Shown here: positions 1 to 57,291 of the stretch, piece by piece
Position numbering within the stretch: the first letter of the stretch is position 1
How the letters are laid out: each line of letters starts with the position of its first letter
Source of the DNA: a virus
Direction: 5' to 3' (one strand)
Length of the DNA stretch: 64,000 nucleotides
IMG/VR virus record: IMGVR_UViG_3300034417_000033
Location: 32,001-96,000 of that record
The notes under the pieces: generated by a model
Database searches by the model: none
Told to the model about the DNA's origin: nothing
What the model saw: only the letters and a program-made list of their open reading frames with translations
Made by a program: the position numbers and the translations under genes

Positions 1-1180
1 CTGCTGTGCCGTTTTTGTCAATAAAAATATTAATCACGCCTTCCTTTCTTAATCGCGGTAAAACAAACTGCACCTTACCTAACGACTTTTCCATCAACGT
101 GCGCAATCCTCTTGCACCTGTTTTATTCTTGATGCTTTTTACTGCAACATCACGAACAAAATCTTTATCAAACTCTAATTCAACATCGTCAATTTTAAAC
201 AGAACTTTATATTGATCAATTAAGTTATTTTTAGGTTCAGTCAATACACGAACCATCATATCTTCATCAAGTGCTTGGAAAGTAACAGTAACAGGGAAGC
301 GGCCAATAAACTCTCTAATGAAACCATATTGGTGCAAATCTTCCGACTCTACTAAATTTAAAACACTTTCCTTTTTATCTCTTGCTTCAACTTTAGCAGA
401 GAAGCCAATGCTTGTGCCTAAAGACAACCGCTTGCGTATAATTTCTTCGAGGCCAACAAACGCTCCACCAACAATAAACAAAACATCTTTTGTATTAAAG
501 TCGATTGTTTCTTCTCTGTGACTGCCTGGCTTTTGTATCTGAACTTTATCGCCATCTACTGCACGAAGCAATGCTTGCTGTACACCTTCACCGGAAACAT
601 CTTTGGCGCCTACGCCATCTACCTTTTTTGTCTTCTTATCGATCTCATCAATAAACACAATACCTTTCTGTGCTTTATTGATATCGTTGCCTGCTACTTT
701 CAGCAGTCTTTCAAAAATGGATTCGATGTTGCCACCTACATAACCTGCTTCAGTTAATGTAGTTGCATCAGCAGTAACAAATGGGATATCTAACAGTTTA
801 GCAATTGTGGAAGCAACTAATGTTTTTCCACAGCCGGATGGACCCATCATCATTACGTTTGCTTTTTGTAATTCAGTTTCGTCCACTACTGGATTAGAAA
901 TTCTCTTGTAGTGATTATACAGTGCAACCGCAAGTGTTTCTTTTGCATCGTCCTGGCCAACAACATATGTGTCGAGATATTCTTTTATTTCTTCTGGAGT
1001 TTTACGGACTGCAACGACAGTGTCGTCTACAGTTGTTGCATTCCCTGCAATCAGGCCGAAACTCAGCGTAATACACTCGTCGCATATGTACGGAGTGTCA
1101 GCTCCTTTGTCAGGACCTTCGATTAATTTTTTTACGCTGCTTCTACTTTTGTTGCAAAAGGAACATTTTAAATCTGACAT
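1..1180 (-). CDS. clpX: ClpX-like AAA+ unfoldase (3' end runs off window)
   Basis: Hand translation from ATG 1180: MSDLKCSFC...ICDEC Zn finger, VGQDDAK, GPSGCGKT Walker A, TEAGYVG, FIDEIDK Walker B, DVSGEGVQQALL, TGARGLR; open to window edge. Confidence 0.95.
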   Translation of the reverse strand, partial: MSDLKCSFCNKSRSSVKKLIEGPDKGADTPYICDECITLSFGLIAGNATTVDDTVVAVRKTPEEIKEYLDTYVVGQDDAKETLAVALYNHYKRISNPVVDETELQKANVMMMGPSGCGKTLVASTIAKLLDIPFVTADATTLTEAGYVGGNIESIFERLLKVAGNDINKAQKGIVFIDEIDKKTKKVDGVGAKDVSGEGVQQALLRAVDGDKVQIQKPGSHREETIDFNTKDVLFIVGGAFVGLEEIIRKRLSLGTSIGFSAKVEARDKKESVLNLVESEDLHQYGFIREFIGRFPVTVTFQALDEDMMVRVLTEPKNNLIDQYKVLFKIDDVELEFDKDFVRDVAVKSIKNKTGARGLRTLMEKSLGKVQFVLPRLRKEGVINIFIDKNGTA

Positions 1181-44215: not shown

Positions 44216-44740
44216 TTAAAAGAAAGTAGAAAAATCCGATAGCTTGTATTTAAGCCCAACTTTGTTTGCTTTTTTAATTGCTCGCTCTAACTTTAGCTTA
44301 GATACTGCTTCTAAAAATACATGACCTTCTAAATGCTCGTGCTCATGCAAAAACACCCTGGCGTCAAAGCCTTGCAATTCAAAATGTTGCTTATCGCCTT
44401 TAACATCAAAACATTCAACAATTACGCCTAACGGACGCTCAACTTCAATAAACAATCCGGGAAAGCTCAAACAACCTTCATATTCAATATCTTGTTGTTC
44501 AGATGTTTCTATAATTACTGGATTAAATAAGCATGTGGCGCTCTTTTCTGTGCCCATTGCAAAAACACGCTTGTTATATCCTACTTGATTTGCTGCTAGG
44601 CCTAACCCTCTACTACGAACCATTATAGAAGTTAATGTTTGCTCTAACAGTTCTGGCTCTATATCAGGATTGGAAAAATCAAAATCGTCTAATGTAGTTT
44701 TTAAAATGTCTGATTTATAATCAACAAATGAGAAATTCAC
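44216..44740 (-). CDS. def: Peptide deformylase
   Basis: GLGLAANQVG, EGCLSFP, HEHEHLEG. Confidence 0.95.
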   Translation of the reverse strand: MNFSFVDYKSDILKTTLDDFDFSNPDIEPELLEQTLTSIMVRSRGLGLAANQVGYNKRVFAMGTEKSATCLFNPVIIETSEQQDIEYEGCLSFPGLFIEVERPLGVIVECFDVKGDKQHFELQGFDARVFLHEHEHLEGHVFLEAVSKLKLERAIKKANKVGLKYKLSDFSTFF

Positions 44741-49541: not shown

Positions 49542-49565
49542 AAAAAAGGGCGCGAACGCCCTTTT
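49542..49565 (-). terminator. Intrinsic terminator after the sheath gene
   Basis: AAAAGGGCG-TTCG-CGCCCTTTTTT. Confidence 0.9.
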
Positions 49566-49579
49566 CATTTTATGCTATC

Positions 49580-52322: not shown

Positions 52323-52400
52323 TTAAAACCTCCTTTTGATTTTAGCTAAAATAGTTTCTATACTTATTTATCGTTATCTTAGGAAAAGGAGGTGTTTTAA
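52323..52400 (-). promoter_or_regulatory. RBS-sequestering hairpin with a late box (52365-52372) in its loop
   Basis: TTAAAA-CA-CCTCCTTTT pairs with AAAAGGAGG-TTTTAA just before the sheath GTG. Confidence 0.7.
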
Positions 52401-53865: not shown

Positions 53866-53892
53866 AGAAACCTCGTTGTTTCTACTATTTAT

Positions 53893-54162
53893 CTAGTCTA
53901 TCGAGTTGTATGGTGACGCTCCAGCTTCTCCTGGATTCTTTAACCTAAGTAAAAAAATCTCCTCTTCCGATAAGTTGAGTCCTTTGCAAAATTCATGAAA
54001 ATCAGGATATACATGGCCACAATATGCCCACACATAAAATTTACCAGATCTAGACACAAATGCTGGACCATCTAATCTGTGCAGGTCACCATTTTGATTT
54101 TTCCATCGAGTTCCGCCATTCCGGTCAACGGTCATGACTGACGCCATGTTATTTTTCGACAC
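53893..54162 (-). CDS. Hypothetical protein with LHRLDGPA motif
   Basis: GDLHRLDGPA; EEIFLLRLK. Confidence 0.7.
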   Translation of the reverse strand: MSKNNMASVMTVDRNGGTRWKNQNGDLHRLDGPAFVSRSGKFYVWAYCGHVYPDFHEFCKGLNLSEEEIFLLRLKNPGEAGASPYNSID

Positions 54163-55294: not shown

Positions 55295-55471
55295 TTAGAA
55301 TAGTATATAGCCTTTTTGGAGGAAGAGCAACCGTAAAAAAAGGTTGCTGTTGCAACCTTTGTGTTTTTCTTTTCTGGAATAATCTTTTTTCTTATCCCTA
55401 TGCACTTGTGCCTTATTAAATGTTGCAGCGTGTTTTGCCACAAAATTATTAGTTGTCTGTCGCTTCTTCAT
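55295..55471 (-). CDS. ArfA-like alternative ribosome-rescue factor (candidate)
   Basis: GAGGAG RBS; NNFVAK..FNKAQV..DKKK.YSRKEKH resembles the ArfA core; internal terminator precedes the stop. Confidence 0.65.
   Translation of the reverse strand: MKKRQTTNNFVAKHAATFNKAQVHRDKKKDYSRKEKHKGCNSNLFLRLLFLQKGYILF
55335..55360 (-). terminator. Intrinsic terminator inside the ArfA-like ORF
   Basis: AGGTTGC-AACA-GCAACCT-TTTTTT, about 13 codons before TAA. Confidence 0.75.
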
Positions 55472-55485
55472 TTTATACTCCTCGG

Positions 55486-55570
55486 AAATAAAGACTCCCC
55501 TTAAGGTAGCGAACAATAAGGGGAGTCACGTAACCACAACGGTCCCACGGTGCAGTTAATATTATTTATC
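55486..55570 (-). promoter_or_regulatory. Late box plus structured leader ending in a terminator-like hairpin
   Basis: GATAAATA 55563-55570; 11-bp stem GACTCCCCTTA/TAAGGGGAGTC followed by TTTATTT. Confidence 0.6.
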
Positions 55571-56738: not shown

Positions 56739-57002
56739 TTAAGACATCCTTAAGAATTCAGCTAACACCTTTTCTAAATTCTTCATTTTAAACATAGTTG
56801 CGTCTTCACCTTTAGCAAATGCAATACTAACAAGAGGGTATGACGATACCGTAGATTCGTAATAGTAATATTTTACTTCATCAATAAATTGGCCGTAAAC
56901 AAAGGCTTTAAATACTGCTTCATTCATTGCGCTCTGTCTAAGTTTTGTGTCAATTAATACCCACGATTTAACGCGGATAGTATCTGGCTCGGAACTCATC
57001 AC
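56739..57002 (-). CDS. Hypothetical protein
   Basis: FAKGEDATMFKMK motif. Confidence 0.7.
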   Translation of the reverse strand: MMSSEPDTIRVKSWVLIDTKLRQSAMNEAVFKAFVYGQFIDEVKYYYYESTVSSYPLVSIAFAKGEDATMFKMKNLEKVLAEFLRMS

Positions 57003-57291
57003 ACTTCTCCTTCGATTCTTTCAGGCCGAGGCCGGTTTTATTTCTATACCACTTGATCAGCTCTACTATATTGTCACCCTTAAACGGATGCCCTTCAAAA
57101 TCGCCGAAGCCATGGGATAGTCGGAAGATAAATTTCTCGTAGTCTGTTTTAATTAACGAGATGTCTTCTTTCATGGTCATGTTCATGATCCATTTTACTG
57201 CATCTGGAAACTCGTCATAGTTTTTCTTAACAAGTTCTTCCAACTGTTCTTTAAACGTCAGCATACTCATGATTATGTCCAGTAATTCCAA
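56968..57291 (-). CDS. Protein with ribosomal L7/L12 C-terminal-like motif
   Basis: IVELIKWYRNKTGLGLKESKEKCD. Confidence 0.6.
   Translation of the reverse strand: MELLDIIMSMLTFKEQLEELVKKNYDEFPDAVKWIMNMTMKEDISLIKTDYEKFIFRLSHGFGDFEGHPFKGDNIVELIKWYRNKTGLGLKESKEKCDEFRARYYPR

Follow-up and report, generated by a model that had tools for sequence, protein, structure and literature searches.

A phage-borne DUF7230 gene with an intrinsic terminator inside its reading frame, a candidate non-stop-controlled ribosome-rescue factor

Analysis of a 64-kb stretch of a viral record (referred to here as the window) revealed a small gene of the DUF7230 family on the minus strand, at positions 55295-55471, in which an intrinsic terminator lies in frame ahead of the stop codon and directly after a basic segment ending in Lys-His (KH). 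Judged by sequence, the C-terminal half of DUF7230 is similar to the segment of the bacterial rescue factor ArfA that occupies the mRNA channel, including KH. We give a probability of about one half to the proposal that this ORF is a phage version of the small release-factor-dependent rescue factors (ArfA, BrfA and ArfT) and is under non-stop control.

Ribosome rescue is essential in bacteria. ArfA (YhdL, PF03889), found in beta- and gammaproteobacteria, is an alternative rescue factor that depends on RF2; its N-terminal segment adds a strand to RF2 and activates it. In regulation of the ArfA/BrfA type the peptide is tagged through tmRNA and accumulates only upon failure of trans-translation. 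BrfA (YqkK) of Bacillus subtilis is release-factor-dependent and has a rho-independent terminator ahead of its stop codon; the KH channel-pocket motif, common to ArfA and BrfA, is the only sequence that the two share (PMC8012679). ArfT of Francisella tularensis is a 40-residue factor with an ordinary stop codon and no internal terminator (10.1101/465609).

The window gene consists of 58 codons and TAA, with ATG at 55471-55469 and TAA at 55297-55295. A ribosome-binding site, GAGGAG, was read from the sequence at 55478-55483 (minus strand), 6 nt 5' of the ATG; the TTG at 55516, another possible start, lacks a site of this kind. The original prediction of a 58-aa ORF with a strong ribosome-binding site is thus borne out. 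The protein matched Pfam DUF7230 (PF23876) with 58.2 bits (cut-off 27, E 8.8e-16) over residues 7-39, corresponding to profile positions 3-34 of 42, and also matched phrog_1359 (E 6e-13); an NCBIfam search with the protein gave no match. The conserved core, residues 7-39 (55355-55453, minus strand), was delimited by the Pfam match, by conservation in the family and by likeness to the ArfA channel segment. The ArfA-like part is found at the end of the core, with Tyr31, Arg33 and Lys36-His37. In a protein atlas, used as a lead only, an ArfA-labelled cluster appeared at rank 6 with a score of 0.83.

Immediately 3' of the Lys36-His37 codons, at the first base of codon 38, begins a stem-loop that spans codons 38-45 (55339-55360, minus strand). 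It has a 9-bp stem, made up of a 6-bp core with four G-C pairs plus three A-U pairs, and a 4-nt loop (AACA), with a folding energy of -11.2 to -11.8 kcal/mol; the centroid fold of the region is this hairpin alone (-11.8 kcal/mol). A run of seven T, the U tract of the transcript, was read from the sequence at 55335-55341 (minus strand, codons 44-46) and is the expected end of terminated transcripts. The U run ends in codon 46 and is followed by 12 sense codons before TAA. A G+C-containing stem-loop passing directly into a U run is the form of an intrinsic terminator, and its place ahead of TAA agrees with what had been predicted. The ArfA/BrfA-type arrangement, a hairpin inside the frame giving an mRNA without a stop, is likewise seen here at the sequence level. 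The predicted hydrophobic tail after the terminator was also found, codons 44-58 being rich in Leu and Phe. The part beyond the U run, codons 47-58 and the stop (55295-55334, minus strand), is probably missing from terminated transcripts and is not conserved as protein; in the closest relative, P0002 (86% identity), the tail is shorter and the ORF ends sooner.

A strict scan of the window for a hairpin with a U run found the motif three times on the minus strand and twice on the plus strand, and no such site occurs inside an ORF of at least 80 aa on either strand. Since there are only three strict motifs on the minus strand, a terminator at most 30 nt after KH is not expected by chance. A maximal-stem scan calls the hairpin of this ORF on the plus strand only; on the minus strand it goes uncalled because the maximal stem leaves four T in the tail.

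Among cultured relatives, the gene neighbourhood is shared only by PA5oct, a jumbo phage of Pseudomonas, and by phages akin to it. The downstream gene encodes 374 aa in the window and 372 aa in PA5oct (39% identity, E 6e-75), a neck gene comes next, and the DUF7230 peptide of the window is 45-49% identical to the PA5oct-type orthologues. The PA5oct orthologue lies in the EST_0191 region of MK797984.1, at about 115.80-115.97 kb. Its hairpin, of 8 bp with a 4-nt loop, sets in at the His-Arg codons; a T run comes next, and the stop lies five codons beyond that run. The PA5oct and window hairpins are unrelated in sequence and occupy the same codon position. In phage 30-3, a sister of PA5oct, the core is identical, the T run has one extra T, a 1-nt indel that shifts the frame after the hairpin, so that the ORF reaches 75 codons. 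The PA5oct hairpin together with the frame shift of phage 30-3 indicates that the position of the hairpin is conserved and that the tail is not conserved as protein. The tail codons of PA5oct overlap a putative sigma-70-type promoter of the next gene. The check proposed with the original prediction, a conserved terminator before the stop in homologues, thus gave a divided result: PA5oct keeps the position and not the sequence, and most phage homologues have an ordinary stop.

Among viral contigs, a search for related loci with the window peptide, P0020, P0005 or the 374-aa neighbour alone found nothing, and tblastn of P0020 and P0005 against phages gave no match. None of 80 viral loci with homologues of the 374-aa neighbour has an adjacent DUF7230 gene, and synteny support is therefore limited to PA5oct-type phages. 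Five loci (L361, L362, L381, L383 and L389) encode a sub-threshold DUF7230 peptide (14 bits) in their first 160 nt, with the homologue of the 374-aa neighbour following about 1.1 kb downstream. The middle segment of these peptides is more ArfA-like, and they may be intermediates between DUF7230 and ArfA.

Analysis of the family at large revealed that DUF7230 is widespread in phages. A tblastn search with the peptide matched 684 phage records, for the most part those of T4-like phages that infect enterobacteria, Vibrio or Aeromonas, and an exhaustive family search gave 52 clusters at 50% identity; all 52 relatives matched the DUF7230 model. In T2, Aeh1, AV111 and KP15 the gene is 38-45 codons long, its ordinary stop follows KH by 2-8 codons, and a hairpin is lacking. 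Ordinary stops are present in most phage members, including those of T4, T2, KP15 and marine phages. As the bulk of phage homologues end at a plain stop and lack a hairpin, the non-stop design is lineage-specific and not a trait of the family. A stop before the hairpin in homologues had been named as evidence against the original prediction, and the plain stops of most phage homologues count as such.

The DNA following KH was compared in two samples collected with degenerate patterns, one of 72 distinct genes from viral contigs and one of about 55 family members from viral and metagenome contigs. Clear cases of a terminator before the stop in the two samples are the window gene, L271 and L059, and weaker cases are L307, L029 and L049. 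In L033, L047, L278, L279, L298 and L340 a hairpin holds the stop, either in its loop or at its edge. Unusual structure after KH was present in 10 of 52 phage and metagenome members, and of these ten, a clear terminator ahead of the stop exists in the window gene and L271 alone. Translation of a U run is expected to yield a Phe/Leu-rich tail with its first Phe 7-11 residues past KH. Such tails were found in about 18 of the 52 cluster representatives, which, going by their peptide tails only, would carry in-frame terminators. The tail after KH has a median of eight residues in 182 family peptides; hence the product has much the same length after KH regardless of whether a stop codon or the transcript's end terminates it. 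In the same 182 peptides, Lys and His of the KH motif are conserved at 87% and 70%, respectively.

Several DUF7230 genes were observed in other settings. The T2 gene (L002, 1504-1623) lies between arn.1 and arn, among early anti-defence genes; the T4 homologue is flanked by these two genes as well, and the T2/T4 form has 39 residues. The gene of the Klebsiella phage KP15 (L433, 248-385, plus strand) is unannotated, as are those in several T4 records, and no paper in the literature searched mentions the family. Marine viral contigs encode proteins of 400-700 aa that include a fused DUF7230 module, at the N-terminus (L010, L027, L116, L118), at the C-terminus (L020, L037, L066) or internally (L038, L081). 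The C-terminal modules are downstream of a nucleotidyltransferase-like domain, an arrangement that recalls the catalytic domain and channel-sensing tail of ArfB.

The original prediction had called the peptide ArfA-like, which has support from the C-terminal KH motif, whose likeness goes beyond composition, and none from the Pfam ArfA model or the PDB-wide search. The Pfam ArfA model (PF03889) gave no match to the protein or its 52 relatives at E up to 1, and with the limit raised to E 10 it matched nothing in the full phage record. A PDB-wide profile search with DUF7230 did not recover ArfA; its best match was an unrelated archaeal virus protein with 14.5 bits, which indicates that scores of about this size arise by chance in large databases. 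In a pre-specified hhalign comparison of DUF7230 with 38 diverse ArfA sequences, whose genes were gathered by genome searches, 23-26 columns were aligned with a score of 20-24 (P 4-5e-4). Against this, 100 column permutations of the ArfA alignment scored 8.9 +/- 2.1 with a maximum of 15.7. The DUF7230 HMM gave at least 10 bits for 9 of the 38 ArfA sequences, compared with 2 of 7600 shuffles.

The aligned segment reads Phe..Val..Lys-Lys..Tyr-x-Arg-Lys-x-Lys-His, and on the ArfA side it is the mRNA entry channel segment. While Tyr-x-Arg-Lys-x-Lys-His is common to both families, the Gly-Lys-Gly-Ser turn of ArfA is absent from DUF7230, which has Lys-Lys-(Lys/Asn)-Asp in its place. The N-terminal half of DUF7230 also differs, being a distinct conserved motif (Asn-x-Val-Ala-Lys-His...); only in a global hhalign do its Asn...Ala positions line up with those of ArfA, and this lacks statistical support. 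A complex prediction of residues 1-47, using the family alignment, with E. coli RF2 scored 0.02 and speaks neither for nor against an interaction.

Comparison of the 3' ends of arfA and bacterial DUF7230 genes revealed two designs present in both. A hairpin with a U run before the stop was found in 9 of the 38 arfA genes, and in these terminator-type genes the hairpin starts at -11 to +21 nt relative to the KH codon; in the window gene it starts at +1. In bacteria, DUF7230 was present in 2 of 401 genomes of a phylum sample and in 20 of 401 genomes of one order. An -Ala-Ala end, with the stop in the apical loop of a hairpin that starts right past KH, was seen in about 8 of 20 bacterial DUF7230 genes; the hairpins of these -Ala-Ala genes are 12-20 bp long with energies of -25 to -44 kcal/mol. 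The same design was found in 10 of 38 arfA genes. Three or four other bacterial DUF7230 genes (L349, L447, L453) have in-frame terminators. The median folding energy of the 66 nt past KH is -20.2 kcal/mol for arfA, -18.1 kcal/mol for bacterial DUF7230 and -8.8 kcal/mol for DUF7230 from phages and metagenomes. The weak but ordered motif, together with two rare 3' designs common to both families, is most simply read as DUF7230 and ArfA doing the same job.

Examples of the -Ala-Ala, stop-in-loop design are L233, L234, L236 and L239-L241 among arfA genes and L436, L437, L443, L444, L448, L449 and L451 among bacterial DUF7230 genes. The full-length product of such a gene would have an ssrA-like C-terminus, and its message, if cleaved, would be non-stop. 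The bacterial gene with an in-frame terminator in L349 (1480-1710, plus strand) lies between Fic-domain and Mrr-like restriction genes, a neighbourhood that suggests a mobile or defence island.

The window peptide resembles ArfA in being tiny and basic, with C-terminal Val..Lys-Lys..Tyr-x-Arg-Lys-x-Lys-His, in a frame broken by a hairpin right after KH that leads to a predicted mRNA without a stop, and in a hydrophobic tail in the full-length frame, with a predicted mature length of KH plus about eight residues. Unlike ArfA, DUF7230 stays below the ArfA model, is mostly phage-borne and has ordinary stops in most members. BrfA, from a Gram-positive host and with about 62 residues when mature, is likened to the window peptide by the layout of its gene. 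The T4, T2 and KP15 type of DUF7230, with 38-45 residues and an ordinary stop, is comparable in length and stop to ArfT; ArfT differs from phage DUF7230 in that it is chromosomal and recruits RF1 or RF2.

The observed layout leads us to infer where transcripts end and that the peptide is tagged, binds ribosomes and recruits a release factor, as follows. Transcription would probably start at a candidate late-promoter box 92 nt upstream, and the terminator right past KH would end most transcripts in the U run, at codons 44-46, without a stop codon. Ribosomes would stall on these stop-less messages. As long as tmRNA is available the peptide would be tagged and degraded; when trans-translation is saturated, which could come from RNA cleavage driven by the phage or by defence systems, an untagged peptide of about 45 residues would be released and accumulate. 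Its basic C-terminal segment ending in Lys-His would then occupy the vacant mRNA entry channel of a ribosome that has stalled at the 3' end of a broken message, and the N-terminal segment would recruit a release factor, so that the ribosome is freed. In the window phage and PA5oct the peptide would come mainly from the terminator-truncated message, while T4-type members with plain stops would be expressed constitutively, as ArfT is.

This proposal draws on the unrelated hairpins of the window and PA5oct and on the independent cases L271, L059 and bacterial L349, L447 and L453, whose hairpins are unrelated too. Counted against it, the likeness to ArfA spans about 25 columns of a Lys/Arg-rich motif, the N-terminal half that would contact the release factor is not significantly similar, most phage members have plain stops, the module is also found fused to large proteins, and the stem is short; the downstream gene moreover lacks a recognised promoter, so that read-through may be substantial. 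In the main alternative, to which we assign clearly less than an even chance, DUF7230 would be a basic peptide that binds RNA, DNA or ribosomes in some other role (a translation inhibitor, a hibernation-like plug, an RNA chaperone or a packaged internal protein), the terminator would have drifted, as a compact genome allows, into an unconstrained 3' end, and the position of the stop would be incidental. Such drift fits the continuum of stop positions, which runs from the loop (L033, L278, L279, L298, L340), the stem edge (L047) and the U run (L029/L049) to beyond the U run (window, PA5oct, L271, L059), and it also fits the plain stops of most members, the fusions to large proteins in marine phages and the weak homology to ArfA. 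It is harder to reconcile with a layout that persists at 45-49% identity, as a stop beyond the terminator leaves the terminated mRNA non-stop under any design and would silence a gene needed constitutively. The rare 3' architectures common to true arfA genes, including the -Ala-Ala stop-in-loop ends, and a motif likeness that is ordered and not compositional also argue against it.

A further alternative, which we regard as unlikely, is that the hairpin terminates weakly, or serves to attenuate or to stabilise the 3' end, and that the full 58-residue protein is functional, its tail serving for example in membrane association. The short stem and the missing call of the maximal-stem scan on the gene strand would allow this. 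The downstream 374-aa gene, moreover, has no copy of the candidate promoter box of its own and may depend on read-through. Against this, the tail is not conserved: the closest relative has a shorter one, that of PA5oct is unrelated, and in 30-3 its frame is shifted behind an identical core. The Pfam profile stops a few residues after KH, and the median tail of the family peptides is eight residues. That the ORF is no gene at all, and the hairpin the terminator of an upstream unit, is very improbable: the ORF is small and lies between two hairpins, but a Pfam match with E 9e-16, a strong ribosome-binding site and homologues in hundreds of phages speak against it.

On the preferred interpretation of the window gene as a rescue factor, a wider one can be put forward tentatively, at somewhat less than even odds. 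DUF7230 would be a large, mostly phage-borne class of release-factor-dependent rescue peptides, distantly related or convergent to ArfA, that repeatedly switched between constitutive and tmRNA-sensing expression. The constitutive state would correspond to the ordinary stop (T4, T2, KP15; like ArfT) and the tmRNA-sensing state, like that of arfA, to the in-frame terminator or to an -Ala-Ala end whose stop is enclosed in a cleavable hairpin. If this is true, phages carry their own ribosome-rescue capacity against RNA damage caused by infection and host defences, viruses have adopted a non-stop mRNA sensor of tmRNA activity, and small release-factor-dependent rescue factors comprise a fourth family. 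A DUF family that hundreds of cultured phages carry, T4 and T2 among them, often without annotation, would also gain a function. No report of a phage-encoded ArfA-type factor was found in the literature searched.

The candidate late-promoter box is the octamer GATAAATA at 55563-55570 (minus strand), about 92 nt 5' of the ATG and just beyond the stop of the preceding gene. The octamer occurs in 15 copies in the window, compared with 3.6 +/- 1.8 expected, and 13 of the 15 are on the gene strand; copies on the minus strand include those at 52365-52372 and 53886-53893. The box is akin to the T4 late promoter. Between it and the ribosome-binding site of the small gene, a hairpin with an 11-bp stem and a 13-nt loop, followed by a U-rich stretch, was read from the sequence at 55493-55527 (minus strand); it may act as a leader or attenuator or form a small RNA of its own. 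Should GATAAATA be a late promoter, it would produce a monocistronic RNA of about 230 nt that ends inside its own frame.

The window is part of a 106.9-kb viral record, which is rated 29% complete; the phage is for this reason taken to be a jumbo phage. No tRNA or tmRNA and no Rfam family was found in the 64-kb window, and no tmRNA in the 106.9-kb record; a search for an RF-1 domain likewise gave no match. ClpX and a peptide deformylase, both named in the original prediction as encoded in the window, were recovered, the former as a ClpX-like 408-aa frame with its zinc finger at 1046-1168 (minus strand) and the latter at 44291-44728 (minus strand). The L7/L12-like protein named with them was traced as a sub-threshold match only (18.9 bits, cut-off 25.9; 56995-57078). 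This match, to the L7/L12 C-terminal domain, lies in a 107-aa ORF at 56968-57291 (minus strand), 1.5 kb upstream of the small gene. Elsewhere in the window, a strong bidirectional terminator-like hairpin is present at 49543-49566 on both strands, with -12 to -13.5 kcal/mol and U runs on both sides.
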